A stretch of DNA of 62,685 nucleotides from a virus (Duplodnaviria > Caudoviricetes): positions 1 to 62,685 of IMG/VR virus record IMGVR_UViG_3300037354_000009; one strand, written 5' to 3'. Of the stretch, positions 15,426 to 56,750 are shown in pieces; the first letter of the stretch is position 1; every line of letters begins with the position of its first letter. Both the position numbers and the translations under genes were made by a program. A model generated the notes under the pieces. The model ran no database searches, was not told the origin of the DNA, and saw nothing but the letters and a program-made list of their open reading frames with translations.

Positions 15426-15466
15426 AGAATAGGTAGTTGACTGCATGCATGTCAACCCCGCAGAAT
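15426..15466. promoter_or_regulatory. overlapping divergent sigma70-like promoters centred on a palindrome
   Basis: minus strand TTGACA(15455-15450)-N18-TATTCT(15431-15426); plus strand TTGACT(15437-15442)-N18-CAGAAT(15461-15466); palindrome GTTGAC-TGCATGCAT-GTCAAC. Confidence 0.65.
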
Positions 15467-15491
15467 CAAAACTCATCTCTACAGAGATAAC

Positions 15492-16022
15492 ATGAAGCAC
15501 GACGACTTGGGAAGCAAACAGGAAGCAGAGCACCTCCGCAGGTTGATGGACGCCAGAATAGCCAACCTCGAGAAGCAGATGGCCTTCCTTCTCCGAATCA
15601 ACGGCCTAGATCTGTCAGCCTTCCGTACAGCCACTGATGAGCAGTTACTAGAGATCTACCGTGGTTCCGTGAGCCTAATCTCCGTGATCAACAAAGGTGT
15701 AGATCTGGAGGTCATAGAACGGTGGTCTGAGTACTTTGTTCAGTTCTCTGAATACGAATTCACCCGACTGCAGCCCCTAGTATCCTTTGACCACACTTGG
15801 GAGCCATTCTTCCTCCTGTGCACCAAGATGATGACCCAAGTAAGGCACGATAAGCGCATGGGCGAGAACACCTCTATTCAGCAGCTTTATGCCGTCCTGG
15901 ACAAGGGTAGGAGAAACCTCAGGGACGCGGCCATCCTTATGTGCCGCAAGTACCCCGATACCCTAACAGCCAAGGGTAAGGTGATCTTAAAGGACAACAA
16001 CCTGCTGGCAGACCTCCAATAG
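15492..16022 (+). CDS. hypothetical protein, divergently transcribed from head operon
   Basis: 176 aa helical ORF with ATG start. Confidence 0.65.
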   Translation: MKHDDLGSKQEAEHLRRLMDARIANLEKQMAFLLRINGLDLSAFRTATDEQLLEIYRGSVSLISVINKGVDLEVIERWSEYFVQFSEYEFTRLQPLVSFDHTWEPFFLLCTKMMTQVRHDKRMGENTSIQQLYAVLDKGRRNLRDAAILMCRKYPDTLTAKGKVILKDNNLLADLQ

Positions 16023-16023
16023 C

Positions 16024-16052
16024 GCAAAACAGGCTGTTTTCCTGGGTATAAG
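16024..16052 (+). promoter_or_regulatory. phage promoter class A
   Basis: GCAAAA-N17-TATAAG (GGGTATAAGGATA); followed by hairpin CTGCTACA/TGTAGCAG and RBS. Confidence 0.8.
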
Positions 16053-16105
16053 GATACTGCTACAGGAAACGCTATTCTAACGATGGCGTGTAGCAGGAGG
16101 ACACT

Positions 16106-16411
16106 ATGCGTACACCCAAGAGTCAGAACCAAGGTCAGAAGGTTGCTACTCAAGACTCTATGACCCAAGCCGGGCTTCAAATCTCCCAGGCCACGCTTCA
16201 GGGCTACTTTGACAACCAAAAGGCCCAGGCTGATGCCGTCATCGCCTTCTTCAAGGACATGATGAGCTCCACCGTTCCGCTCGTGATGGCCGCCATTTCA
16301 ATGAAGGAGCGAGAATGCGCCTCCAGGATCGAAGTGGCCAAGTTGGAGCTGGAACGGGCCAAGCTCGAGAACCCGTCTGCCAAACGCCGTACCAGCAGTG
16401 ACGTTTCCTAG
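16106..16411 (+). CDS. hypothetical (probable early) protein
   Basis: 101 aa; RBS CAGGAGGACACT-ATG; own promoter and terminator. Confidence 0.75.
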   Translation: MRTPKSQNQGQKVATQDSMTQAGLQISQATLQGYFDNQKAQADAVIAFFKDMMSSTVPLVMAAISMKERECASRIEVAKLELERAKLENPSAKRRTSSDVS

Positions 16412-16430
16412 ACAACGGTCATGACCCAGG

Positions 16431-16463
16431 TTGACCCCGTCCAAACGGATCGGGGTCAATTTT
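16431..16463 (+). terminator. intrinsic terminator
   Basis: TTGACCCCG-TCC-AAAC-GGA-T-CGGGGTCAA then TTTT. Confidence 0.7.
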
Positions 16464-16525
16464 AGCCCCCAAAATAGGCCAAAATGGGGCGTTTTGGGCC
16501 CCCTATGGGATACCCCTCCAAACAG

Positions 16526-16554
16526 TGAAAAACATGGGTTTGGGTGGGTATAAG
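16526..16554 (+). promoter_or_regulatory. phage promoter class A
   Basis: TGAAAA-N17-TATAAG (GGGTATAAGGATATTG). Confidence 0.8.
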
Positions 16555-16614
16555 GATATTGAAGCAGGAAAGGATAGTCCGATCTTGTGGCCCAAAACTG
16601 ACCAGGAGGACACT

Positions 16615-17043
16615 ATGGAAACTGAAGAGAACTACACCATGAACAAGACCACCATCAAAGCCATCATCGCCAAGCTGGCCAGCACCAACCTCTCCGCTGA
16701 GGACTCGGAGAGTATCAAGAAAGACTTCGCATCCTTGTCCGACGAAGACAAGGACACCCTGCGGGCTAACCTCTCCACCTTCGGCTTCTACAAGAAGGGT
16801 GGGGCCTGGAATGCCGGAATGATAACCGAGTTCGGAGACCTTCTGCGACCCAACATCGGGGTGCACGAGACGGTCAAGGCCGCCGTCAACCTGGGCCTCA
16901 AGGGCTTGGGTATCGGTACTGGCGGCTACCTGGCATATCAGGGCGGCAAGGCCGTGCTCGAGAAGATGGGCGTGGTGGGTGTTACCAGCACGGGGCTGGC
17001 GGCGGCAGACACCCTGGGTGCGGCGGCCTTCGGCGATGAGTAG
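16615..17043 (+). CDS. hypothetical (probable early) protein with Gly-rich hydrophobic segment
   Basis: start moved to ATG 16615, RBS CAGGAGGACACT-ATG identical to that of 16106. Confidence 0.75.
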   Translation: METEENYTMNKTTIKAIIAKLASTNLSAEDSESIKKDFASLSDEDKDTLRANLSTFGFYKKGGAWNAGMITEFGDLLRPNIGVHETVKAAVNLGLKGLGIGTGGYLAYQGGKAVLEKMGVVGVTSTGLAAADTLGAAAFGDE

Positions 17044-17052
17044 ATCACAGTA

Positions 17053-17104
17053 GACACACCCTATTCGAATTGGTGTGTCGGGAGAGGCCATCGGGCTTCT
17101 CTTT
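17053..17104. terminator. tandem hairpins between convergent genes, probable terminator
   Basis: GACACACC/GGTGTGTC and GGAGAGGCC-ATCG-GGCTTCTCT-TT. Confidence 0.55.
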
Positions 17105-18914
17105 AGCCGTAATTCTCTGCCAGACCAGTGTCCTGTAGCGGTGCAAAGATATCTGGACGAGGGTTCTCCAGACACGCAGCCAGCAAGCACAGCAGGTGAG
17201 AGTGGAATGCGTCGTCTGTCTTACCAGGCTGCTTCTTGTACTCATTCATCCTGAGCCGCTCGTTATACTCGGTGAAGATGTTGAGCACGTCCTGAGCATG
17301 AGGTTCTTTGTAGTCTTCCCACCTAGGCAAGTCGATCTTCTTAGCCTTCATGGCATTGAACAGATCGCTCATGACCTCAGTCCTATGGGTCATCCAGCGC
17401 TTGAGGTTAGGCTCCCAATAGATCTTCTTTTTCTGCCTCGGATTGTATTGGTACTTCATTACCTTGTGCGCACCAAAGCGCTTGATTAACTTGTCATTGG
17501 GATAGAAGCCACCACCGTAGTCGACCCCTATGATCCTGACCTGCAACTGGGAGCACATCTGAGTGATAATGTCTAGCTGGCGCTCAGGGTCCAGGTCCTG
17601 CCCAGTGAAACGATGGCACCAAAAGATCGTGAAGTTTCCTGACCCCATGTACCCGCCAAAGGATACGTGTGTGTAGGATGCGCTCTCTCCCGGACCCCAG
17701 TCTATCCCAGCGTAGATAGCCCTACCCTGTGCCAGCGTACGGAACTGTTCAATGTCCCCCATCTCCAACTCTGGACGGCAGACAGCCTGCAGCTGAGCCC
17801 TGGTGATTGGACGAACACCAGAGTCATAAGACATACCCAGCTTCTCGTTCATGAACTGAGATCTTGAGTACTGCTCCTGGGCAACAGTAACCTCCTCCCA
17901 GTCCACCCACGGCACCATGATCTGAGGAATACGGTATCCCTCAAAGGTGACCTTGTCCTTATTGTCCACGGTCATGGGCTGCATAGAAGCCCACTGTGCC
18001 TTAGGGTGGCGAGCACTGATCAGCTCACCACACTTGTCACATATCAATCCCTCGGACCCTATGTTCTTCTCAGCCAGTACATTCCAGTGCCACGTACCCG
18101 AGTCACTCGGTAGACCGTGCCTCTCGCAAGGTACAACCCACTCATTCTGAGTAGAGAACTCACTCCAGTAGTGAGCGATGGTGTTGTCCACTGACTTAGG
18201 TGTGCCGGAGTAAAGGAAGAGCTTGTAGCTCGAGTGGAATGCACACTGCTCGATGACTGGGATGTTATCTACCAAGATGTCTTGAAGCTCATCGATCAAC
18301 ACCATATCCGCAGGAATACCACGGACACGGTCTGCTGTGAGGTAGGCGTACCTGAGTCTGATCTGAGAGTAGTTGATGAACTTCTTGAAGAAGACTGCTT
18401 GGTTGATCTTAGATGAGGTGTACGAACGAAGCATAGGTGAGGAGTCGATGACGTCCTTGATGCGGTCGTTCGAGAAGACCTTCGCTTGTTCAGCTGAGGG
18501 TGCGACGTACAAAGATCTGAAGTTGTTGGTCAGTGCTGAGTAGCAGAGTAGACGATTGCCTAGGGTGGTGGACTTCTCAACCTGACGACCGCACTGAAGT
18601 AGAACCTTGTTGGCTGGGGTATCATAGATCTTCTTGAGGTACTCACGTCCCTCGAAAGAGAAGTCTGAGATACGACCAGCCTCTGGCACCCTGATAGCAG
18701 TCTCCGCAAACTCAGATGGAGATACTCCAACCAGCTCTTCCATCTGAGCTGCGATCTCATCCTCCTCAGGTTCGAGATCTATTTGAAACTCTTGTGGTTC
18801 TCCTTCCTCGTTGTAGTCAAAGAAGGGTTCCCCTTGTCCATAGGAGACATGGTGAAGTGGAATAGCTCTCGCAGAGCTCAACATCTCAGCTTCATCTAGT
18901 CTGATCGTAGCCAT
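17103..18914 (-). CDS. terL: terminase large subunit (lambda gpA-like)
   Basis: Walker A-like CGRQVEKST, LYVAP, Walker B VLIDELQD, motif III SGTP, CxxC/H zinc pairs, RNase H-like GIDWG and C-terminal DDAFH. Confidence 0.85.
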   Translation of the reverse strand: MATIRLDEAEMLSSARAIPLHHVSYGQGEPFFDYNEEGEPQEFQIDLEPEEDEIAAQMEELVGVSPSEFAETAIRVPEAGRISDFSFEGREYLKKIYDTPANKVLLQCGRQVEKSTTLGNRLLCYSALTNNFRSLYVAPSAEQAKVFSNDRIKDVIDSSPMLRSYTSSKINQAVFFKKFINYSQIRLRYAYLTADRVRGIPADMVLIDELQDILVDNIPVIEQCAFHSSYKLFLYSGTPKSVDNTIAHYWSEFSTQNEWVVPCERHGLPSDSGTWHWNVLAEKNIGSEGLICDKCGELISARHPKAQWASMQPMTVDNKDKVTFEGYRIPQIMVPWVDWEEVTVAQEQYSRSQFMNEKLGMSYDSGVRPITRAQLQAVCRPELEMGDIEQFRTLAQGRAIYAGIDWGPGESASYTHVSFGGYMGSGNFTIFWCHRFTGQDLDPERQLDIITQMCSQLQVRIIGVDYGGGFYPNDKLIKRFGAHKVMKYQYNPRQKKKIYWEPNLKRWMTHRTEVMSDLFNAMKAKKIDLPRWEDYKEPHAQDVLNIFTEYNERLRMNEYKKQPGKTDDAFHSHLLCLLAACLENPRPDIFAPLQDTGLAENYG

Positions 18915-18943
18915 GCAAAAACTTCCTGTGTTCGAGGTATAAG
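18915..18943 (+). promoter_or_regulatory. phage promoter class A, abutting the terL start codon on the opposite strand
   Basis: GCAAAA-N17-TATAAG (AGGTATAAGGATATTG). Confidence 0.75.
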
Positions 18944-18946
18944 GAT

Positions 18947-19080
18947 ATTGGTTGAGAGGAGTCTTACTCTGTCAACCAATCAAAACTCTGCTGGACCTCA
19001 GCACTGCATTGGTACCTAGTGAAAACTAGGAACCATTCATTGCTGATAGCCAACAGACCGGCGTAAGCCGGTCCAGTACT
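18947..19080 (+). ncRNA. candidate structured small RNA (~135 nt)
   Basis: no ORF; stems ATTGGTTGA/TCAACCAAT, TCAGCA/TGCTGA, CCTAGT-GAAA-ACTAGG, GACCGGC-GTAA-GCCGGTC (two GNRA loops on + strand); directly after class A promoter. Confidence 0.6.
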
Positions 19081-19088
19081 TAGCCCTA

Positions 19089-19613
19089 CTACGGTAGCCC
19101 TATGTAGGTACCGCATGGCCATTTGTACACTTCACCGATCTTAAACCCGAAGTGATAGATGAAGCGAACGATGAAGTTCTCTGACCACAAAGGACCAGTC
19201 GGCAATGACACAGACCAGCTGTCTACCTCAGGAAAGTACTCCATCTTTCCAGAGGAACCCTTGAAGTACTCCGTCAATGCCTCAGAAAGCTTCTCTTCGA
19301 AGCCAGGATTCCACGGGATCTTCTCGAATGCAGCGTTGGCTTCCGTGGCCAGAGCATTCTTAGCCTCATCAGTGGACAAGGTCCTCATCAGTTCTTCGGT
19401 TTCTTCGAATAGCTTCTTTCGATCTCTCTTGTAGAAGTGGTAGGTCAGCACGTCGCCTGCCACTCTCCACTCAGCCAACAGATTGTCCTTTACCACTTGG
19501 TTGAACTTAGGCACCGCCTTGATCACACTATCAAGCGGTACGGTATCTGTTGGTAGAGTGTCTACTGCTTTGTGTTCGGTCTCAGTTGCGAAGAACGGTA
19601 CGATCTCAGCCAT
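19089..19613 (-). CDS. hypothetical protein
   Basis: 174 aa, RBS GAGGA, coupled to upstream gene. Confidence 0.6.
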   Translation of the reverse strand: MAEIVPFFATETEHKAVDTLPTDTVPLDSVIKAVPKFNQVVKDNLLAEWRVAGDVLTYHFYKRDRKKLFEETEELMRTLSTDEAKNALATEANAAFEKIPWNPGFEEKLSEALTEYFKGSSGKMEYFPEVDSWSVSLPTGPLWSENFIVRFIYHFGFKIGEVYKWPCGTYIGLP

Positions 19614-20517
19614 CTTTATCCTCCTCTAACATACTGTCGTGGATCAGCTTACCGTCGGTTCCGGCTCCCGACTTGCTGAAGTTGTCACCTGCAAGCTCTT
19701 CAATGGACAGCACCCTGCTTGTGTCCTTCTTCATCCTGAACTTCTCGAATGCCTGGAGAACTTCCTTCAGAGCTACATCGCTCTGCCGCATCTCGTTCTC
19801 AGCAGCAGTGATGACGTCCATGTAGTTCTTCATCATCTTGGAGTGGATGATAGAGGCGGGCTGCCTTTCGATCTCTAGCACCTTCATGAAGGCTACGTCC
19901 CGCATACGACGAGCCACCACACCAGTGTTGATGTTGGGTGGTGGACCAGACATGCCAGCCAACCAAGGCACCACCATCTCCTGCATGTCTGGGGCAGCAG
20001 TGAGAGTAGTGATACGATCATAAGCATTGGGCTTATGATCCATGAACGCTATCCACTCACTCATGGATAGGAGTCTACGGTTCCAGAAGTAGTGCTGGAA
20101 CGCAGACACACCCTCCACAGTGAGGCTAGCGCCGTGATACTTGTTGGCTTTGGTTACGATGTCCTCGAATCTCAACGAGGACAAGATCAATTGCTCGATG
20201 TTTTCTCTTAACCTGGGTTCACCTAATATCCTGTAAGCCTCAGCCACTGCTGGGGTAGGGAACCACAGCTCATGGATGTTGTGCTTGCGCAGGTACGCTA
20301 CAGTCTCCTCATACGCTTCGGAATCACCTGATGGAGACGTCTCCCAGGGATCTGGAAAGGGCTCCATCTTCTCCTGAAGCTCCTCCAGATAGCGCCTGCC
20401 TACAGACTCCATCTGATGGTCTTCAAGGATTGTTACGAGCGTACCTAGATCGTACTCCCTCTTACTAATTAAGAATCTAATGAAGTATTCTGCTGGGCTA
20501 TGCCTAAGGTCTGCCAC
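19606..20517 (-). CDS. hypothetical protein (possible terminase small subunit by position)
   Basis: 303 aa helical protein two genes upstream of terL; no diagnostic motif. Confidence 0.5.
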   Translation of the reverse strand: MADLRHSPAEYFIRFLISKREYDLGTLVTILEDHQMESVGRRYLEELQEKMEPFPDPWETSPSGDSEAYEETVAYLRKHNIHELWFPTPAVAEAYRILGEPRLRENIEQLILSSLRFEDIVTKANKYHGASLTVEGVSAFQHYFWNRRLLSMSEWIAFMDHKPNAYDRITTLTAAPDMQEMVVPWLAGMSGPPPNINTGVVARRMRDVAFMKVLEIERQPASIIHSKMMKNYMDVITAAENEMRQSDVALKEVLQAFEKFRMKKDTSRVLSIEELAGDNFSKSGAGTDGKLIHDSMLEEDKDG

Positions 20518-22869: not shown

Positions 22870-24093
22870 CTACTTCAAATAAACGATCTTTGCGAGGATG
22901 CTAGCCAGTGCCCCTGCCTGAATGGGAGGACCATTGGGTACGTGAGTATGTGTTGCGAGCCAGTTCAATAACTGTAACCCAAGAACGCCTGGCTCGGAAG
23001 CGTCTGCACCACCTAATTTCAAAGAGGATGCAGTGATTGACTTGATCTTGGCCCAAGTCTCTGCACTTCCCTCATTTCCAGTAATGGTGTGGTCTTTCTT
23101 GATGGTCTCAGTGAGAGCACCCTGCACTATGAGTTCACGATCCTTAGTGACGGTGATGCTCTGTGTACCATCCACTGTCAGCGTGTCTGTACCGGTGATC
23201 TCTACCTTGCGGTCACCCTGCATCGTGTAGGTGGTGCCGTCTCTACCTATTCGAAGGATGAACTTCTCACTCTGGGTGGTTCCATCTATTGGATTCACGT
23301 TGTCTGGAGAGACCACCACTTCTATGAATGGAACAGCGTCACTGGGAAGATGGGTACTCTTAATCAAGGAGCCGACGCTTACCTTGACAGAAGCCATCTT
23401 ATCTTGAGCAAACTCTCTGGCCACCAGCATGAACTGCGTGGGAGCATCAGCATCAGGCGTGGTCTCCGACGGGTGCACCACCCAGCTCATGGTTCCGGCT
23501 GCTGTGTTCAGCTCGTAGTTCTCGCAGAAGTCCCGGATGTAGTTGCCTAGAGGTATGTAAGCCCGCTGACAGATATTAGTGGACCCTATCTGAAGGACAC
23601 CACCTCGACGCATGACTACGAAGTTCTCATCCCGGCCCTGCCACAGCATGTCCCCAGGGTTGAGCACGGGTCTCTTCGACCGGTAGCTTGCGTCCGAGAC
23701 CCTCTCCTGGGTAGTGCCACCGGAGGTGGATACCTTGGGCGTAGAGACGAGAGCAGTCTCCTGGGTACCTGTTGGCTCCTCCTGGGCGTTCGTACTGCCA
23801 GAGTCCACTGCCGATGCTTCAGGGGCAGTGAGGAACCCCATGACGAAGGGAGACTCGTCATCAGATGGCCAGCAGAGCACGCACACGGCACCTACCTCAG
23901 GCACTACGGTGAAGCCCTCACCGTTGTTGTAGTGGAGGTATGGGGCCATGATTTGCACCCCAGCGATCTGCCTGCCTGAGTGTTGGGACACCCAGTCTAT
24001 GGTCATGTTCTGTGGGTTCACGTTGGCTACGACACCGGTCTCACATCGAAACCGGCTCTTGCCGTCGCTCACCATTGAGTTCTTGAAGGCCAC
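22870..24093 (-). CDS. baseplate central spike protein (gpV/gp45/gp5-like)
   Basis: N-terminal OB-fold (GVVANVN...VPEVGAVCV...PFVMGF), 8-residue beta-helix repeats (ITGTDTLT VDGTQSIT VTKDRELI VQGALTET), C-terminal THTH tip motif. Confidence 0.75.
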   Translation of the reverse strand: MAFKNSMVSDGKSRFRCETGVVANVNPQNMTIDWVSQHSGRQIAGVQIMAPYLHYNNGEGFTVVPEVGAVCVLCWPSDDESPFVMGFLTAPEASAVDSGSTNAQEEPTGTQETALVSTPKVSTSGGTTQERVSDASYRSKRPVLNPGDMLWQGRDENFVVMRRGGVLQIGSTNICQRAYIPLGNYIRDFCENYELNTAAGTMSWVVHPSETTPDADAPTQFMLVAREFAQDKMASVKVSVGSLIKSTHLPSDAVPFIEVVVSPDNVNPIDGTTQSEKFILRIGRDGTTYTMQGDRKVEITGTDTLTVDGTQSITVTKDRELIVQGALTETIKKDHTITGNEGSAETWAKIKSITASSLKLGGADASEPGVLGLQLLNWLATHTHVPNGPPIQAGALASILAKIVYLK

Positions 24094-27000
24094 TAGTATT
24101 CCCCTGGCTTTCCTTTTCCTACCTCAGCACCGTACACAATGGCTGGGATCGGATGGACCCCGTGGATGCTACTCGTCCAGCCCTTCTGAGCTGCTTCTAT
24201 GATCGTATCCGACAGGTTCTCGTGATTGAGCTTAGCTATCCAGTCTTCTTGCATCTCTAGTGGTAGTACGTTGACACCCTTGAGAATGGGCTCATGGATT
24301 ATTGGGTGAGCTCCCTTAGGCATGCTCCTGTTGATACTGGAGACCTGAGACGTAGAAGCAAAGTCTCCACGGATATACCCAGTGGAGGAGCCTGGGTCCT
24401 TGATCTTAGTGAGGTTGGTCAGTGCCTTCACCACTACCTCGTGGTTCCTTCTACGGATACCCGAGTCAGCGAAGGCATTGCTTAGCTCCTTGGCCAAGTG
24501 CAATTGCACAGGCTCTACACCAGTGAGAGCAAGCATCTCGTGTGGATTCACCAGACCACCAGAGATTGGGCTACCCTTCTTAACCTCCATCCCGACCTTC
24601 AACGGCTGTCCGTTGTACATCGGGGCACCTATTGCGTGGGGTACGTAGTGCGTGTGCCCTTCTACGGTGACTTCGTAACCACCGGCTGCTGATGGGGCGA
24701 TCTTAGTTACCTTACCATTCACTCCGCTCAAAGTAGCAGACCCAGGCAGTACCTTCGGGAAGGCCAACAGATTCTTGACGTTCTCGAAGTCATCGACCAG
24801 AGCACTCTTAGAAGAGGCGGTACCACCAGTGTGGAACGCCTTCAGGGCCAGCTGCGTAGTGCGTTCGCCCAGGGACTGCCCAGCAAGGACACCTACGTTG
24901 AGTCCCTTCTCTGGCAACACACCGTTCTCTGTGAGACCGTAACACTTCTGGCAGATACCGGGCCCGTGCAGGCAGCGAAGTGGAGACCTGACCACTACCT
25001 TACCCACGTTATTGTTCCGTAGGGAATTGCGTACCTCAGGTGTGATCAGTGTGCCTGTCTTGAAGACGTGGCTGCCTGCCTTGATGTCAGCCGCAGTGAA
25101 CCTATCCAGGACGTCCTTGTCATCTACACCAAGGGCTATACCCTTATCTGTACCGCAGTCATGATCTACGATCAAATTGTTCATGACCGAGTTCATGACC
25201 TGCTTGCTGATGTAGCCAGGCTCCTGAACGGATTGAACCTTCTGGATGATGCCCTTACGGGAACCACTGATAGCCGTCCAGTAGTCTGCGACATCCAGTC
25301 CTTCGGAGTAAGACCTACGAACTGGAGTAGGGATGATCTCTCCCTTGTGATTGCTCATGAGCATGGGCGCAGCACGTATCTGCCTGAGGGTATCGGTACC
25401 ACCCTTCATGCCCACGTTGTGCAGGAGCATCAGATTGTTATCGCTCTCGGACACAGCCCTAAGATGTTTGTTCATCTCATTAGTGGCTGCAGCGTAGATG
25501 TCAATCTGCTTTTGATCTTTGTGTGGGCCAGTAAGCTTGTGTACTTTGGCATCGGCTTCAGCCAAGATCTTGTCTCTCATGTGGCGCTCAGGAGCTATGT
25601 CCTTCATGCCAATGGAGAAGGCCGTGTCTGTGGCCCACATGTTCCCGAGATCTTTCAGCTTGTTAGCAGCGTCACTGTACTCACCCTTGTGCTCCTTGCC
25701 GATCTGGGTGAACATGGCTTCCTGTGCCTTCTTGTCTAGAGAGGCACTGCCCTCTAGTAGCTTCCGGCGCATGGCCTCTGGTAGAGCACCGGCTACCATG
25801 AATCTTCCTACACTAGCCTTCATACCGCCTACAGACACTCTATCAGTGAGGTGCGCTTCTCCCCTCCTGACAGCAGCCTCCATCTCCTGCATGTTGGCGA
25901 ACTTATGATTCGTATTCTTCCCAGGCTGCATGATTCCATACAACCCGAGTCTGCTCTCGTTAGTCGGGGCGTACATGATGTCCCCTGTAGAAGGACTGAA
26001 TAGGTTCCTTGAGGGCAGCATCTTGTGTGCTTCTGCCACAGCTTCTACGCTCACAGGTACGAAGGCACCCATGGCATCGCCATCGAAGTCAGCATTGAAT
26101 CCGCTGGTAACCAGAGGGTGTACCTGCACCGCCTTGCCTCCTACTATACGAGGCTTGAATGCCTGCACACCGTACTTGTGGAGAACAGGATCTCTCTTGA
26201 GGAGAATGGGCCTACCTGCCATGACTCTGTTCAAAGCACGATCAACTATCTCACCACCCTCAGTCAGCTGCTTCTGTGCCTGCAGTGGGGTAATGCCAAG
26301 CATGTTCTTCAGCTCACGTACAACGAATGGCTTGTACACCTCGAGTGCAGCAGACCTAGGCAGGCCTACTTCGTCCAACCCTAGAGACGGCTCTGGGATA
26401 ATGGTTCCACGCATGGACATGTCCTGCTTGCGTTCGACCAATTGATCTTGGAAGAAGCCCTCCTTGGGAGAGCCACCCTTAGCGCCTGTCCTGACATCTA
26501 TGACCTTCTTGCCGTGGATGTAGTCCAGGATTCCTCTGCGCACCTGGGACGGGTACCCACCAATACCAGCCAGTGCACGAAGGCCATCATAGACCTCATT
26601 ACGAACGTCAACCTTCGACGGATCATCATCCGGGATCAATGGAGACATCTTAGAGTAACGAGAAGCCGATAGGTGCAGGTTCTTGTAAAGACCATTCAGA
26701 TCTTCTTCGCTGATGGTTCCATTGGGTAGCACTGGTAGAGGCCGCATCGAAGGAGGAAGAATAGGTATGGTCTTGGCTAGGTACGCTTGAGAAGGGGTCA
26801 TGCCCACCTTGTCTAGCGCCTGCAGCAACTTCACTTTGCTGTTGGCATGGTCTAGGTAGGAGCCTTTCAACGTAGGCTTATCTAGTGCGATCTTAGCGGC
26901 AGCTAGGTCTCTCTTCACATCGATCTTTCCAAGCATGTGCTCGAAAGCCTTACCTCCTACGATCCCACCAGGCATCTTCTCAGCCAGCCCTATCTTACCC

Positions 27001-30000
27001 GTACCAGGATCTACGGCTAGCGTACCACCCACCACCCCATCGAACTCTTTCTGCTTGATGCCAAGCAAACGAATGATCGCACTCTCAAAGACTGGATTCG
27101 GAAAGGCTTCTGGCAGGTGGTAATGTGACCACTTCGTACCCTCTAGCCCACCAGTAACCTTGGGGTCGAACAAACCACCGGGTTCTGGCTTCATGTTCTT
27201 GGCAGTAACCCACCGAGCTGGATCTGTGATCTCACCGTTGCTCTGCTCAACGATCTGCTTGTCAGTCATCGGCATCAACGTGAGATTGTTCCCTACTTTG
27301 TGTACATTCACCCCTAGCCCCTTGATGTACCCAAGGAACTTGTGATACGCAAACGAAGGCTTAGGTGTAGGCAACATCTCTCCAGCCTGGAGAGCGGACC
27401 AGAACTGATCTCCTTGAGCAGCGTCACTCTTCAGAGTCTGCATCTCTCGCAAGTTGGCCACTGCACCGTGAGCCAGCATAGAGTACAGACCAAGGGTACC
27501 CAGAGACTTGGCTCCCTGTGGACCACCGCCCCTAGGGATCATGTTCTTGTCGTAGGCGTAGCCAGTACCACCAGCACGAGCACTCAGCTTCTTTTCTACC
27601 TGGTGATGGAGCTTGAAGACGTGCATGGGTCCGACTAAAACGTCACCCATCTTGTTGTGAGTAACGGGATCGAATACCTCTTCCTTGTCTGTGAGTCCAT
27701 GCTTCTCGAGGTCAGCCGTCACCTGTGCATGGAAGTCTGCGCCTGGAGCAAAGTTCTTGACCAGGTAAGGCTTGCCAGTCTTCTCTGCAATCTTACCGGC
27801 TGCGACCTCGAGCACCTGCCCTAAGTTGGTTCTACCCGTGACACCCAGTGGGTTCAGTAAGATCTCAAGATGCCTACCGTCCTTGGTGTGTGGCATCTCG
27901 CTGTCAGGTATGATGCGAGTAACGATACCCTTATTACCGTGCCTGCCTGTGGCCTTGTCACCGATCTCAAGTGGCTCCTCAGTCTTCACGTGTACTGACA
28001 CGTTCTTGCCGACCTTCACCACCTCTTTGACGATACCAGAGTAGTCGCTGTCCCACTTGATGCTGGAGTCTTTGTACGGCCTGACGATGGACTTGTGAAG
28101 CTTCGACAGTTCTATGTCTTCCTTACGCTCAGGATCATTAGAAGCACGAAGAGCAGCCACCAAAGTATCCCCAGGCATAATCACTGTACCTGGTAGTACG
28201 ACGCCTTCTTCATCTAGCTTGTCGTACTGAGCCTTGTTCATGGCCGTTGGCATGTACGCCTGGAACTTCTTCTTGTCCAGGATGTGTGCGATGTCCCGCT
28301 CCAGAGAGTGCCTGTGCAGGTGCTCAGATGTCAGCTTCTTAGCTGCGCTCTCGCTGACCACGATGCCGTCATCAAAGTTGTACCCTTTGTAGGGCATGAA
28401 CCCTGCTCGCAGGTTGGTTCCTATGGCTAGAGTACCGCCCTTGGTGTAGTTGGTATCAGCAATGGTCTGCCCATCAGTAACCCGATCACCCACCTTAACG
28501 ATGGGCTCAGCATGCATGAAGGCCTTGTCCTCGTTCAGTGGAAAATTATCGTAGATGTGTACCTCGTGCTTGCCACCATCAGATTTCTTGATGATGATGG
28601 AGTCGGACTTGATCTTGTGGACTACGCCATCTACTGGAGATCTGTGACTAGCAAAAGTACCGACCACCTTATCAAAACTATTGGCACCAGCCATGCTCTG
28701 AACAAGAGGGACCTCCCTATGCTTGAGCGAGATAGCTTGTTCCATCTGCCGACCAGCCATGGTGCTACGGTTCGGGTGATCTGAGGGCATGAATGGAATC
28801 ATGTTGGATGACATAGAGAACATCTGAAGAGGGTCCTTCATGATGTAGTCTGCGTCCTTCAACTTCCCCTCATAGATCTCGTTGCCTGGCCCACTGATCT
28901 TGACTACGTCACCTGCAGCCTTTGGCTTGCCGCCTTCCCAGTGTACTTGATCTGGTAGAGCTACGTGTGACCGGTATGCCAGAGCAGGATTCACATCCTC
29001 ATGCTTCCCAGTCTTCGTGTTGTACATACGCACAACAACATCGTGCCCCTTCTTGATGACACCAAGAGGGAGTCGCAGGGTGATGCCGGTAGCGTGACCT
29101 TCGGGAGTATGGATAGGGTCCAAGAATCCTAAGTGAGAGGGGTCAATCAACTTGGCATCGTCGCTGATCTGATGCTCAGACTTGACGCCACCATCCCCCA
29201 TGATGGTTGTCTTCATCTGCGCAGAAACCATCTCCAACGGATTCGTCTGGTCCGTAACGATAGCTAGAGAGTTCTTACCGAACATCTGCTTGATCGGACG
29301 GTTGAACACCTCTGGAGAGATGATGTCCCTGACTCTATCCTTTCGGTCAATGTTATTGTTGACCTTCCTTATGATCTCTCTAGAGCCTTTGATCAACCTC
29401 TCTGCTGCAAAGTCCTCAATCGAATGGAGGTCTTTGAACATGAGAGCATCACGTGGGTCTGGCTTAGCCTCACCTCGAGAGATCTGAAGGAGCTTGTGAG
29501 ATGCGTCCAACAATAATGGGCCAGTGACTGATGTGTACCCTTTACCTAAGGTGAATAGGTTCACCTCTGGACGAAGTACAGTCTTGCCCATGGTCTCCCA
29601 CAGGTGCGCCTTTGCCTCATCTGGCGTGGGCTTAGTAGTCTTGTCACCTGTAGATGCCCGGTAGAACTTGGCCAGTTCCTTGGTCTCGTCTGCGTGATTG
29701 ACACCTACGATGTCTTTACCCCAGGACTTCTCTACCTCTTCCTCAGACACACCCATGGCGTGTAGGAACGGTTTCAATGGCATGTTTGAGTTGCCGTAGT
29801 TCAGTGTGAACTCCTTCGACTTTGGATCGAAGTGTACCTTGAACCCGCCAATAGCATTGACATGAGACTCGAGAGCCCCGTCTGCTTTGACCATGTTATA
29901 GACACCTGGCTTCAGCCTCCACTGGTTGTCTATCTGGTACTCTTGGCCATCCACAATGTGGCTATACCTACTGGTGACCTTAGGCAGGTTCAGCAGGTTC

Positions 30001-30260
30001 ATCTTCTGCTTGTCTATGACCTTGCCAGAAGTGTTGTCCTTCAAGGTGACTGTGGCTTCAACAGGAACGGACCAAGTACGTCCGCTCAGCTTGGCCTGTT
30101 TCTGTGACCTGAGATCATCGATACTCAGATTATCTTTAACCGCTACATCATGTAGTTCTAGCGTGTTCTTCCGCCCGATTATGGGGAAGAGCCCGCTGAC
30201 TGCCTTTTGTACTCGGTCCTTGAGGAGTTCAAACCCCTCTTCCGGTGCAAGACGTGCCAA
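24093..30260 (-). CDS. rpoBC: single-polypeptide two-barrel DNA-directed RNA polymerase, fused beta and beta' homologues
   Basis: beta motifs GDKATGRHGNKG, LLNPLGVTGRTNLGQVLE, KLHHQVEKKLSAR; beta' motifs RPILLKRDPVLHK, HPLVTSGFNADFDGD (~26076-26096), DCGT, VRSPLRC..GICQKCYG, GQSLGERTTQLALKAFHTGG; TTG start with RBS GAGGA. Confidence 0.95.
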   Translation of the reverse strand: MARLAPEEGFELLKDRVQKAVSGLFPIIGRKNTLELHDVAVKDNLSIDDLRSQKQAKLSGRTWSVPVEATVTLKDNTSGKVIDKQKMNLLNLPKVTSRYSHIVDGQEYQIDNQWRLKPGVYNMVKADGALESHVNAIGGFKVHFDPKSKEFTLNYGNSNMPLKPFLHAMGVSEEEVEKSWGKDIVGVNHADETKELAKFYRASTGDKTTKPTPDEAKAHLWETMGKTVLRPEVNLFTLGKGYTSVTGPLLLDASHKLLQISRGEAKPDPRDALMFKDLHSIEDFAAERLIKGSREIIRKVNNNIDRKDRVRDIISPEVFNRPIKQMFGKNSLAIVTDQTNPLEMVSAQMKTTIMGDGGVKSEHQISDDAKLIDPSHLGFLDPIHTPEGHATGITLRLPLGVIKKGHDVVVRMYNTKTGKHEDVNPALAYRSHVALPDQVHWEGGKPKAAGDVVKISGPGNEIYEGKLKDADYIMKDPLQMFSMSSNMIPFMPSDHPNRSTMAGRQMEQAISLKHREVPLVQSMAGANSFDKVVGTFASHRSPVDGVVHKIKSDSIIIKKSDGGKHEVHIYDNFPLNEDKAFMHAEPIVKVGDRVTDGQTIADTNYTKGGTLAIGTNLRAGFMPYKGYNFDDGIVVSESAAKKLTSEHLHRHSLERDIAHILDKKKFQAYMPTAMNKAQYDKLDEEGVVLPGTVIMPGDTLVAALRASNDPERKEDIELSKLHKSIVRPYKDSSIKWDSDYSGIVKEVVKVGKNVSVHVKTEEPLEIGDKATGRHGNKGIVTRIIPDSEMPHTKDGRHLEILLNPLGVTGRTNLGQVLEVAAGKIAEKTGKPYLVKNFAPGADFHAQVTADLEKHGLTDKEEVFDPVTHNKMGDVLVGPMHVFKLHHQVEKKLSARAGGTGYAYDKNMIPRGGGPQGAKSLGTLGLYSMLAHGAVANLREMQTLKSDAAQGDQFWSALQAGEMLPTPKPSFAYHKFLGYIKGLGVNVHKVGNNLTLMPMTDKQIVEQSNGEITDPARWVTAKNMKPEPGGLFDPKVTGGLEGTKWSHYHLPEAFPNPVFESAIIRLLGIKQKEFDGVVGGTLAVDPGTGKIGLAEKMPGGIVGGKAFEHMLGKIDVKRDLAAAKIALDKPTLKGSYLDHANSKVKLLQALDKVGMTPSQAYLAKTIPILPPSMRPLPVLPNGTISEEDLNGLYKNLHLSASRYSKMSPLIPDDDPSKVDVRNEVYDGLRALAGIGGYPSQVRRGILDYIHGKKVIDVRTGAKGGSPKEGFFQDQLVERKQDMSMRGTIIPEPSLGLDEVGLPRSAALEVYKPFVVRELKNMLGITPLQAQKQLTEGGEIVDRALNRVMAGRPILLKRDPVLHKYGVQAFKPRIVGGKAVQVHPLVTSGFNADFDGDAMGAFVPVSVEAVAEAHKMLPSRNLFSPSTGDIMYAPTNESRLGLYGIMQPGKNTNHKFANMQEMEAAVRRGEAHLTDRVSVGGMKASVGRFMVAGALPEAMRRKLLEGSASLDKKAQEAMFTQIGKEHKGEYSDAANKLKDLGNMWATDTAFSIGMKDIAPERHMRDKILAEADAKVHKLTGPHKDQKQIDIYAAATNEMNKHLRAVSESDNNLMLLHNVGMKGGTDTLRQIRAAPMLMSNHKGEIIPTPVRRSYSEGLDVADYWTAISGSRKGIIQKVQSVQEPGYISKQVMNSVMNNLIVDHDCGTDKGIALGVDDKDVLDRFTAADIKAGSHVFKTGTLITPEVRNSLRNNNVGKVVVRSPLRCLHGPGICQKCYGLTENGVLPEKGLNVGVLAGQSLGERTTQLALKAFHTGGTASSKSALVDDFENVKNLLAFPKVLPGSATLSGVNGKVTKIAPSAAGGYEVTVEGHTHYVPHAIGAPMYNGQPLKVGMEVKKGSPISGGLVNPHEMLALTGVEPVQLHLAKELSNAFADSGIRRRNHEVVVKALTNLTKIKDPGSSTGYIRGDFASTSQVSSINRSMPKGAHPIIHEPILKGVNVLPLEMQEDWIAKLNHENLSDTIIEAAQKGWTSSIHGVHPIPAIVYGAEVGKGKPGEY

Positions 30261-30321: not shown

Positions 30322-30350
30322 TGAAATTATACTGCGCAAAGCGGTATAAG
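30322..30350 (+). promoter_or_regulatory. phage promoter class A (variant), divergent from RNAP gene
   Basis: TGAAAT-N17-TATAAG (CGGTATAAG); followed by hairpin GCAAGGG/CCCTTGT. Confidence 0.65.
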
Positions 30351-30407: not shown

Positions 30408-30548
30408 ATGAGCATGTCCACCGAAGATCGATCATCCTTGGATTCATTCAGTGATATGGTCCAAGGAGAGGTATCAGACGACAAAGAGGAAGATGGAGGC
30501 GGCGGCGGAGGACAAGACGCAGAAGAAGATGCCGGTGATGACAGGTGA
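30408..30548 (+). CDS. small highly acidic protein (46 aa)
   Basis: RBS AAGGAG then ATG 30408; MSMSTEDRSSLDSFSDMVQGEVSDDKEEDGGGGGGQDAEEDAGDDR. Confidence 0.5.
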   Translation: MSMSTEDRSSLDSFSDMVQGEVSDDKEEDGGGGGGQDAEEDAGDDR

Positions 30549-37504: not shown

Positions 37505-37534
37505 GAAGGTCTCCCTGCGTGAGTACCAAAGATG

Positions 37535-37564
37535 ATAGTACGTTCCGAAGACAAGTCATGTCAA
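37535..37564 (-). promoter_or_regulatory. sigma70-consensus promoter for portal operon
   Basis: minus strand TTGACA(37564-37559)-N18-TACTAT(37540-37535). Confidence 0.7.
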
Positions 37565-37578
37565 CAACGCCGTGGGGT

Positions 37579-54123: not shown

Positions 54124-54569
54124 GCTACCTGAAGGTGTGGATAGATCGTCTACCACCCTCATCCAACAAGATCTATGTGAGCGTCCCAGGAAAGGGGAGG
54201 TTCCTATCGCCACAGGCGTCAGCCTTCAAGGTGTACGCCATGCGGACGATCCAACAGCAGGGCAGGGTAGCCTTCCTAGGCATGAAGCAGAACGTACCAT
54301 ACGAGTTACGCCTGATAGTGTTCTTCGATCAAGTTGAGTACCTGAAATCTGCGAAGGGAACACGGTATAAGCGTATAGATCTTAGCAACCAAGTTAAGCT
54401 GATCGAAGATACGGTTGCAGCAGCAACAGGCATAGATGACTCGCATAACTTCAGGATGGTCTTGGAGAAGCACTGCGATCCAGACCACCCAGGTATGTAC
54501 GTCACCCTGCTACCCATCTCAGAAGATCGAGTTGGGCTCACCAAGGAGCAGTACGATGCAGACACGTAA
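54120..54569 (+). CDS. rusA: RusA-like Holliday junction resolvase
   Basis: LPPSSNKIY...DLSNQVKLIED...GIDDS. Confidence 0.75.
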   Translation: MSYLKVWIDRLPPSSNKIYVSVPGKGRFLSPQASAFKVYAMRTIQQQGRVAFLGMKQNVPYELRLIVFFDQVEYLKSAKGTRYKRIDLSNQVKLIEDTVAAATGIDDSHNFRMVLEKHCDPDHPGMYVTLLPISEDRVGLTKEQYDADT

Positions 54570-56394: not shown

Positions 56395-56467
56395 GGGCCT
56401 GTAGCTCAACGGTCAGAGCAGGCGGCTCATAACCGCTCGGTTCGGGGTTCGAATCCCTGCAGGCCCA
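56395..56467 (+). tRNA. tRNA with CAT anticodon, most likely tRNA-Ile2 (lysidine type); CCA not encoded
   Basis: acceptor GGGCCTG/CAGGCCC, D arm GCTC/GAGC, anticodon GGCGG-CTCATAA-CCGCT, T arm GGTTCGAATCC; C4,C5 acceptor pattern as in bacterial Ile2 tRNAs. Confidence 0.9.
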
Positions 56468-56522: not shown

Positions 56523-56551
56523 GCAAAAGATGATCACATTCGGGGTATAAG
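56523..56551 (+). promoter_or_regulatory. phage promoter class A
   Basis: GCAAAA-N17-TATAAG (GGGGTATAAGGA). Confidence 0.75.
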
Positions 56552-56555
56552 GACT

Positions 56556-56750
56556 TTGGTGAGGATGCATTCTGCCTTCTGTCCTTTCGAAGTGTGTGAA
56601 CATAGTGATCCTCCATCACCGTGATCCTTGGGGATGCATCCTCACCAATTTCTTTGCAGTCGAGGGCCGTTCTGGTTGGCATCAAGCAGGCTTCTTTGGG
56701 CAGAAAACACACAGGCATCGGCCCCTGCATAGTGCAGCTGTGTGTTTTCG
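56556..56750 (+). ncRNA. candidate structured RNA (~195 nt)
   Basis: perfect 15-bp stem 56556-56570/56634-56648; perfect 12-bp stem 56703-56714/56738-56749; GGGCCG/CGGCCC potential pseudoknot; no credible ORF. Confidence 0.6.

Follow-up and report, generated by a model that had tools for sequence, protein, structure and literature searches.

Genes flanking the gap upstream of terL

The locus considered here is a gap of 174 nt (positions 18915-19088) between two minus-strand genes, up174 and terL. The terL gene encodes the large terminase subunit, a member of the lambda gpA-type family (PF05876); up174 is named for the 174-aa ORF that lies upstream of it (Table 1). The whole stretch of DNA analysed (the window) is a viral record of 62,685 bp with a completeness rating of 33%. 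Relatives that are rated as complete (100%) measure 191 and 193 kb, and we consider the lineage to be one of phages of roughly 190 kb. Virion and packaging genes, mostly on the minus strand, occupy positions 25-37504 of the window, and the plus-strand block that runs from 37678 on encodes helicases, UDG, a DnaB-like helicase, primase, PolA and a RecA-like protein. A further product of the window is a protein of 2055 aa in which the beta and beta' RNA polymerase domains are fused in one chain. No DNA-level match was obtained among the 50,697 phage records searched. The runs listed as containing the sequence, nine DNA runs, carry peat or lake-water metagenome labels. In one of these runs (X1) a single contig of 25.8 kb covers the locus; a second run (X2) is fragmented and of low depth, and has no contig over 18988-19273.

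Homologues of up174 are found upstream of terL in relatives. The protein falls in no Pfam or PHROG family and its AF2 model (pLDDT 86.8) gave no informative fold match, the Foldseek search being empty at E ≤ 0.001. A profile search of the PDB returned repeat-like matches to designed proteins and nothing else, and the best VIA match (Z 7.6, to ACT-like domains) is within the noise range stated for that tool. Assignment of up174 as a small terminase or as an RNA binder was considered and rejected, as the protein has neither a Pfam or PHROG family nor a match to an RNA-binding family or fold.

No plus-strand ORF of at least 30 aa is present in 18899-19159. The initial annotation had described a stretch of about 135 nt devoid of ORFs following a promoter, and this description was borne out: the 125-140 nt that follow the motif described below contain no plus-strand ORF of at least 30 aa. 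The minus strand has a 52-aa ORF (18964..19122) that extends across the gap. Of 28 relatives, 18 have short ORFs of this kind on each strand and five lack them on both.

Table 1 Positions of the genes, promoter-like elements and hairpins discussed in the text
Feature	Position in window	Strand	Description
ORF starts after motif copies	16106, 16615, 30408, 37678, 55980	plus	Shine-Dalgarno and ATG
terL, large terminase subunit	17103..18914	minus	PHROG 675 at 4e-65; PF05876 GpA_ATPase
-35-like box ATGCAAAAA	18913..18921	plus	consensus RTGMAAAA from 7 aligned copies, ~17 nt before TATAAG
core motif GGTATAAGGATATTG	18936..18950	plus	-10-like TATAAG at 18938-18943
P1, 5' hairpin	18947..18980	plus	9-bp outer stem (18947-18955 with 18972-18980) and 5-bp inner stem
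small terminator-like hairpin	18989..19003	minus	TGCTG-AGGTC-CAGCA then GAGTTTTGAT; from terminator scan; competes with the base of P2
P2, long irregular hairpin	18989..19055	plus	UCAGCA/UGCUGA stem, 18998-19003 with 19041-19046
P3, terminal GC hairpin	19056..19073	plus	7-bp GACCGGC-GTAA-GCCGGTC
up174, 174-aa ORF upstream of terL	19089..19613	minus	stop codon abuts P3

A repeated plus-strand motif adjoins the terL start codon

The motif GGTATAAG occurs eight times in the window, where 0.66 copies are expected, and all eight copies are on the plus strand. None of 100 shuffled sequences contained eight copies. Seven of the copies are accompanied by the upstream RTGMAAAA box; the eighth (at 54364) lies within an ORF, lacks the box and was discounted. 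Five copies lead to the strong Shine-Dalgarno sequence and ATG of an open plus-strand ORF located about 45-80 nt further on (Table 1). The copy that precedes 37678 heads the plus-strand block holding the replication genes, and three small plus-strand genes headed by the motif lie head-on inside the minus-strand cluster. Other plus-strand units in the window have canonical hairpin plus T-run terminators at their ends. Two copies have no ORF downstream, the terL-adjacent copy and one at 56544. The 56544 copy is followed by a candidate hairpin RNA of 95 nt with a U-rich tail (56556-56650), also devoid of ORFs.

At the terL-adjacent copy the ATGCAAAAA box shares its first bases with the terL start codon (18912-18914, read in reverse complement), and the terL Shine-Dalgarno sequence, AGGAAG, is inside the spacer of the opposing plus-strand motif. 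What the initial annotation had called a class A promoter touching the terL ATG is a repeated and directional motif (8/8 on the plus strand). By its position the terL-adjacent copy is a putative promoter, for which the evidence at the level of the motif is strong, and a plus-strand transcription start is predicted near 18950. Note that a sigma-70 scan called no promoter sites in 18000-20000; the scan is blank at the motif because TATAAG lacks the final T. Two minus-strand operons are headed by canonical TTGACA-N18-TAnnnT sites (found by eye). We also considered an unusually stable 5' hairpin as a general feature following every copy of this promoter class, but this was rejected (-10.9 kcal/mol versus -10.3 kcal/mol for random windows).

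Retention of the motif in relatives

Searches with TerL gave 22, 14, 80 and 24 loci, the 80 being those listed out of 358 relatives. Among the matches listed, 95 loci had usable upstream sequence and these gave 67 distinct upstream regions. The reverse complement of TATAAG was found no more than 90 nt from the terL ATG in 44 of the 67 distinct regions among the matches listed and the control orientation in none (0/67 of the same set). The distance from the ATG is mostly 20-49 nt. Among the matches listed, an NNAAA[AC] box is located 13-19 nt upstream of TATAAG in 29 of the 44 TATAAG-bearing relatives. The arrangement in which the terL Shine-Dalgarno sequence is inside the promoter spacer is likewise retained.

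In several distant relatives (L018, L107/L108, L114 and L117) a Shine-Dalgarno sequence lies 43-51 nt beyond the motif and introduces a divergent ORF of 210-263 aa, indicating that the direction of the motif is away from terL. No Pfam family was found for the divergent ORF products of L018, L117 and L114, and the L018 product is unrelated to up174. In loci where terL is preceded by a co-directional up174 homologue, only non-coding sequence (121-242 nt) comes after the motif (28 distinct sequences, the window included).

Fold of the predicted RNA

The plus strand of the gap folds with an energy of -63.0 kcal/mol (z -5.66) and none of 200 shuffled sequences folded as well. The minus strand gave -62.4 kcal/mol (z -3.67) with one of 200 shuffles as good. 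As the two energies are nearly equal, fold energy alone does not pick a strand. The plus-strand minimum-energy fold contains all of the helices proposed in the initial annotation, namely a 9-bp 5' stem, a TCAGCA/TGCTGA stem enclosing a GAAA-capped helix and a 7-bp helix capped by GTAA. The apical helix of P2, CCUAGU-GAAA-ACUAGG, lies inside the UCAGCA/UGCUGA stem with its GAAA loop at 19021-19024, and the three hairpin loops of the RNA are CUU, GAAA and GUAA. The alternative or closing helix that had also been proposed, TGCTGGACC/GGTCCAGTA, does exist in the window, where it has 9 bp including one G·U pair, but it is not conserved. It is reduced to 7 bp in L039 and is absent from the corresponding place in L038, L006, L001, L010 and L007.

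When the whole window was searched with Rfam 15 the sole match was a tRNA at 56395-56467. With E values of up to 10 allowed, the segment 18700-19300 gave four chance-level matches (best E 0.067) that scored far below the gathering thresholds, and 26 related loci gave no Rfam match. The RNA thus matches no family at the gathering threshold, in keeping with the earlier remark that no known family was recognised.

The only terminator called at the locus is the minus-strand site at 19003-18989, a weak site with a stem of 5 bp; its stem and T-run can also be read in L038 and L039. P3 was not called by the terminator scan and no U-tract follows it on either strand, the mean number of T in the next 10 nt being 3.5 for the antisense strand and 3.2 for the terL strand (23 relatives). 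A simple terminator was therefore rejected as the sole identity of the locus, since P3 has no U-run and no terminator includes P1 or P2. The predicted RNA overlaps neither the Shine-Dalgarno sequence nor the ATG of terL, and tests of pairing in trans with the terL translation-initiation region gave a mean z of -0.03 with 0/28 sequences below -2. The original description of the RNA as antisense to the terL leader holds only if terL is co-transcribed with up174.

A three-hairpin plan in 28 distinct sequences

The comparison comprised 28 distinct RNAs, that of the window and those of 27 relatives (among the matches listed). In all 28 the fold begins with a 5' hairpin and ends with a terminal GC hairpin, and the middle hairpin between them is long and often near-perfect. 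No alignment of P1 or P2 could be obtained between subgroups, MAFFT aligning solely P3 and the promoter, and the sequences of P1 and P2 are hypervariable even at 93% TerL identity (L001). The antisense strand gave z < -3 in 21 of the 28 (median -5.2) and the terL strand in 19 (median -4.5), the antisense strand having the lower value in 19/28. RNAalifold analysis of the four close sequences (window, L039, L038 and L006), which has low power, detected compensatory changes in 6/22 pairs on the plus strand and 5/21 on the minus strand. It did not recover P1 and gave no strand preference.

The P3 core, CCGGC-N4-GCCGG, is near-invariant. An exact match to it is found once in the window, and each related locus has one. 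When the records of five relatives were searched, four had one or two copies per record and the fifth had none. P3 always adjoins the up174 gene and is present only where that gene is present; in 16 of the 23 cases listed, 6-8 nt separate the 14-nt P3 core from the stop codon. No plus-strand ORF after P3 is conserved: five of the 28 have none of at least 50 aa within 660 nt, and in the remainder the positions vary. A conserved small ORF within or after the RNA was not found in the relatives and this candidate was discarded. Taken together, the locus is non-coding, has structure above chance, and keeps its position and architecture in relatives, as expected of the structured ncRNA candidate first proposed.

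Strand signals in the terminal hairpin and in a sister clade

Over the whole RNA the G·U pairs are symmetric, the two strands having 73 versus 74 internal pairs, and 51 versus 48 in helices of at least 6 bp. Owing to this symmetry P1 and P2 are uninformative as to strand, and they could matter in both an antisense RNA and an mRNA. The P3 loop is GNRA (GAAA, GUAA or GCAA) in 17/28 sequences in the plus orientation versus 1/28 on the other strand, a count inflated by shared descent. Of the two GNRA loops originally noted in the window, the terminal one is widely shared, whereas the GAAA loop capping the middle hairpin occurs solely in the nearest relatives L039 and L006 and in the window. When the choice of hairpins was made symmetric between the strands, P3 had 10 G·U pairs (5 internal) on the plus strand versus 2 (0 internal) on the other, and the positions of the wobble pairs differ between lineages. 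The loop and wobble signals of P3 favour a plus-strand RNA.

A sister clade (the L068 group) has the same promoter together with an up174 homologue (hhalign 95%), and an antisense RNA of ~370 nt is predicted in the same slot. Invariant CTAG.TG and CATCCGA motifs flank a covarying hairpin of this RNA, several helices are capped by GNRA or UUCG loops, and compensatory changes are seen in 27 of 48 predicted pairs. The 370-nt RNA ends in GCGGCC-UUCG-GGCCGC followed by CCCCUUUUAGC, an end that is terminator-like on the antisense strand. The predicted L068-group RNA supports transcription of the antisense strand in the terL-upstream slot. As a separate observation, a plain antisense mechanism would need neither the invariant stem sequence of P3 nor the unvarying motifs in the internal loops of the 370-nt RNA.

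Discussion

The features observed in the up174-terL gap are the motif, its orientation, the absence of ORFs, the structure, its conservation and the strand bias of P3. We consider it probable (about 0.7), as judged from sequence comparison, that a real plus-strand ncRNA gene is located in this gap. In the model that we prefer, its transcription, timing, 3' end and regulatory effect are predicted as follows. The phage-specific promoter (RTGMAAAA, ~17 nt, GGTATAAG), with its -35 box against the terL start and the terL RBS in its spacer, would fire away from terL from ~18950 to give an RNA of ~125-140 nt consisting of P1, P2 and P3 and ending a few bases before the up174 stop codon. Since the same promoter class is present on the replication module and on the embedded small plus-strand genes, we infer that synthesis of the RNA would precede late transcription or be independent of it. 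By analogy with jumbo phages that encode RNA polymerases, the motif may be read early by a phage enzyme. Polymerase bound at or leaving the promoter would collide with minus-strand transcription entering terL. Moreover, the part of the polycistronic late mRNA that lies between the up174 and terL cistrons would find a perfect complement in the RNA; this complementarity follows from position, provided that the gap is part of that mRNA. RNA-mRNA pairing would result in a duplex open to cleavage or decay. By either route expression of the terminase large subunit would be held down until late transcription dominates. Our leading, though tentative, proposal for the locus, to which we assign somewhat less than even odds, is a new family of promoter-driven antisense ncRNAs acting in cis at the junction that precedes terL.

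A different reading of the same hairpins is that they act mainly in the minus-strand late mRNA as an intercistronic module of processing, stability or attenuation, with the promoter a separate neighbour. We consider this a live rival, if an unlikely one. The minus strand folds nearly equally well (-62.4 kcal/mol, z -3.67, with z < -3 in 19/28 relatives), the G·U pairs of P1 and P2 are symmetric between the strands, and the terminator-like site 19003-18989, readable in L038 and L039, is on that strand. In the "type ii" relatives a T-run follows the long hairpin on the terL strand. The spacing of P3 from the stop codon is near-constant (6-8 nt in 16/23 listed), and because the gap has no conserved sigma-70-type promoter for terL, it should belong to the mRNA. 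The individual roles that could be assigned, in which P3 protects the upstream message, P2 is a site of double-strand-specific cleavage and TGCTG/CAGCA plus its U-run is an attenuator, are likewise unlikely. The P3 signals (GNRA loops 17 versus 1, G·U pairs 10 versus 2) favour the other strand, however, and no U-tract follows P3 on the terL strand. Further, a role in the mRNA leaves unexplained both the outward promoter at the terL start in 44/67 relatives (among the matches listed) and the antisense-strand terminator-like end in the sister clade. We regard as quite unlikely a structured RNA that acts in trans or as an RNP component, be it a packaging RNA, a decoy for a defence system or nuclease, or a partner of the up174 protein, its antisense position being incidental. 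The P3 stem sequence is itself near-invariant while P1 and P2 drift, which suggests sequence-specific recognition, and P3 always abuts up174 and is found only where up174 is present. The 370-nt sister RNA is more elaborate than a simple antisense RNA requires, and the window has a second candidate for a promoter-driven, ORF-less structured transcript (56556-56650). Set against these points, the up174 protein has no match to an RNA-binding family or fold and no two loops of the window RNA are complementary in the manner of phi29 pRNA. In the boldest version, for which our expectation is similarly low, the terL-upstream slot would encode an undescribed structured-RNA family (in 125-140-nt and ~370-nt forms) that functions as an RNA machine or RNP, with P3 (CCGGC-GNRA-GCCGG) as the recognition hairpin, for example as a cofactor of gpA-type packaging or of the up174 protein.

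Two further explanations dispense with a functional RNA. The conserved elements might function at the level of DNA: P3, whose perfect 7-bp repeats are inverted about a 4-bp spacer, would form a cos/pac or replication-initiation site together with the flanking palindromes. A TerL of the lambda gpA-type family is in accord with this, as are the two-fold symmetry, GC-richness and low copy number of P3 (once or twice per genome) and the strand-symmetric hairpins, which fit a DNA-level reading. Yet neither of the 100%-complete relative records (191 and 193 kb) ends at P3, although the ends of assembled contigs are weak evidence. Hypervariability of P1 and P2 at 93% TerL identity is unexpected for a terminase recognition site, and the strand-asymmetric G·U and GNRA signals of P3 are unexpected for DNA. 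We give this explanation very little credence, and a DNA-level packaging site seems less likely than a trans-acting or RNP role. It is also very unlikely, in our estimation, that the promoter is the leftover of an ancestral divergent gene and that the transcript is functionless, its hairpins being generic stabilising or terminating elements or neutral palindromes. The same promoter does drive a divergent gene of 210-263 aa in distant relatives, P1 and P2 have no conserved sequence, and the 5' hairpins after this promoter class are no more stable than random windows (-10.9 versus -10.3 kcal/mol). A leftover is at odds, however, with the retention, by 21 of the 28 diverged sequences, of structure that far exceeds the shuffled controls, with an invariant P3 that bears a strand-specific signature, and with the persistence of a gap of 121-242 nt across lineages whose genomes are otherwise tightly packed.

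Antisense and small ncRNAs of phages are already known as a general kind. What is new in the proposed cis-acting antisense RNA is its fixed slot beside terL, its defined promoter, its three-hairpin plan and an invariant GNRA hairpin, all predicted across an uncultivated lineage. If transcribed, it would be a conserved, promoter-defined ncRNA gene fixed beside the terminase gene and present lineage-wide in uncultivated large phages. Late-gene antisense RNAs have so far been known phage by phage from RNA-seq. The synteny, the retained architecture and the strand-specific hairpin provide comparative evidence for selection on such an RNA, and this would provide a defined element on which the function of phage antisense RNAs could be tested. 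The transcription programme of the phage, whose RNA polymerase is an unusual single-chain beta/beta' enzyme, could also be approached through the repeated promoter motif.

Comparison with known phage systems

The lambda OOP RNA is a short promoter-driven antisense RNA that overlaps the 3' end of the cII coding sequence and ends at a canonical terminator. The predicted window RNA would likewise be a short promoter-driven antisense species that converges with the 3' region of its neighbour and has a stable end hairpin. It differs in covering an intergenic segment only, in having no U-tract after P3, and in having no sequence or Rfam relation to OOP. The phi29 pRNA (~120-170 nt) is made from an early-type promoter and has two mutually complementary loops used for ring formation. 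The predicted window RNA would resemble it as a structured phage RNA of similar size with an early-type promoter and a packaging context, but it has no Rfam match and its CUU, GAAA and GUAA loops are mutually non-complementary; the gpA-type terminase and the genome type of the window phage differ also. In phage T7, RNase III processing hairpins are located between early genes, and P2 read on the minus strand resembles them in being a long, irregular intercistronic hairpin. The T7 hairpins have neither an opposing promoter nor a conserved GNRA hairpin with antisense-strand signals. The nut site of lambda is a GNRA-like hairpin downstream of an early promoter that serves same-strand genes located beyond terminators. 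P3 has a GNRA loop but is followed by no conserved plus-strand ORF, and a lambda-type nut site was rejected.

In jumbo phages with multisubunit RNA polymerases, early promoters are described as marked by an AT-rich motif of ~10 nt near -10 (PMC7598289), and the polymerases are described in that account as 4-5 split polypeptides (PMC7598289). The window motif resembles those described there in having an AT-rich core of ~10 nt near -10 that is repeated in a phage encoding beta and beta' domains (PMC7598289). It differs in sequence and in having an extra upstream A-rich box, and the polymerase of the window phage is one fused chain of 2055 aa.

A parallel to the proposed function is given by phage PAK_P3, in which early cis-antisense RNAs over structural genes were found by RNA-seq (PMC4933390). 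These RNAs, the small ones being of ~176 nt, are proposed in that report to damp premature late-gene expression (PMC4933390). Further phage antisense RNAs with mapped starts are described in PMC10914365. A cis action at terL, which we favour, would follow the logic proposed for the PAK_P3 RNAs (PMC4933390). Like those described there, the predicted window RNA is non-coding, lies opposite late virion or packaging genes and is of a similar size class (PMC4933390). The PAK_P3 RNAs as reported are mostly inside genes, whereas the window RNA is predicted from sequence and has an intergenic slot of its own (PMC4933390). It is further set apart from them by its defined promoter motif, its three-hairpin plan and its invariant terminal hairpin, conserved across many uncultivated phages.

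Predicted RNA on the strand opposite to terL in the sister clade and in relatives

In a sister clade, the slot between the terL gene and its upstream neighbor (a homologue of the 174-aa gene) is predicted to encode an antisense RNA on the strand opposite to terL. This RNA contains a covarying hairpin flanked by the invariant motifs CTAG.TG and CATCCGA, several of its helices are capped by loops of the GNRA/UUCG type, and its 3' end is a terminator-like hairpin. Compensatory changes were found in 27 of the 48 predicted pairs. Only seven distinct sequences of this RNA were found. A search of Rfam with this RNA gave no match.

In one subgroup of the relatives found by TerL searches, the loop of P1 (the 5' hairpin of the RNA beside terL) was seen by eye to be a conserved 16-mer, GAAGATAGCCAYCACA. 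The stem beneath it appears to carry compensatory substitutions, for example CAGGAATG/CATTCCTG versus AGGAATAG/CTATTCCT.

In several relatives terL carries an intein, which lies after about residue 108, before the ATPase domain; L017 has a longer match span. In L019 the Endonuclease VII ORF puts a distance of about 480 nt between the promoter and the start of terL. The RNA region is retained upstream.

Features of the window and of related loci (L-numbers)
Feature	Location	Strand	Remarks
Antisense RNA, about 370 nt, predicted	L068:1105-1470; also L069, L072, L073, L076, L077, L078	opposite to terL	same slot as the window's candidate
P1 with conserved loop	L002, L003, L005, L008, L015, L016, just 3' of promoter	opposite to terL	by eye
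Intein-bearing terL, one 1025-aa frame	L007:2414-5491; also L006, L008, L009, L014		intein with LAGLIDADG domain
Endonuclease VII (HNH-type) ORF, 137 aa	L019:1836-2249	+	between promoter motif and terL
Second ncRNA candidate	window 56544-56650	+	class-A promoter copy followed by predicted hairpin structure; no ORF
Small genes after terL: ORFs of 176, 101 and 142 aa	window 15492-17043	+	own class-A promoters and terminators
Acidic 46-aa ORF upstream of polymerase gene	window 30408-30548	+	own class-A promoter and terminator
TTGACA-N18-TAnnnT promoter-like sites	window about 15430-15470; about 37530-37570	-	canonical; by eye
Fused RNA polymerase ORF, 2055 aa	window 24093-30260	-	beta and beta' domains within one chain

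Promoter copies and transcription units of the window

Another copy of the class-A promoter, a plus-strand promoter-like motif, directly follows a tRNA (56395-56467) and its terminator. The 95 nt behind it are predicted to fold into a hairpin structure closed by 18 bp (-38.5 kcal/mol, z -3.9), after which comes AAUUUCUUU; this segment is a candidate for another ncRNA.

The small plus-strand genes, including the acidic ORF, sit head-on inside the minus-strand virion/packaging cluster, and no PHROG or Pfam family was found for any of the four ORFs. By eye, the two minus-strand operons of the window are each headed by one of the TTGACA-type sites, in a back-to-back arrangement with units on the plus strand.

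RNA polymerase gene

The beta part of the polymerase ORF matched the domains Rpb2_6 (1.3e-58) and Rpb2_3, and the beta' part matched Rpb1_1, 2, 3 and 5. A class-A promoter copy at 30343 points away from the start of this gene. Jumbo-phage polymerases, as described in the review PMC7598289, are split into four to five separate polypeptides, whereas that of the window is a single chain.
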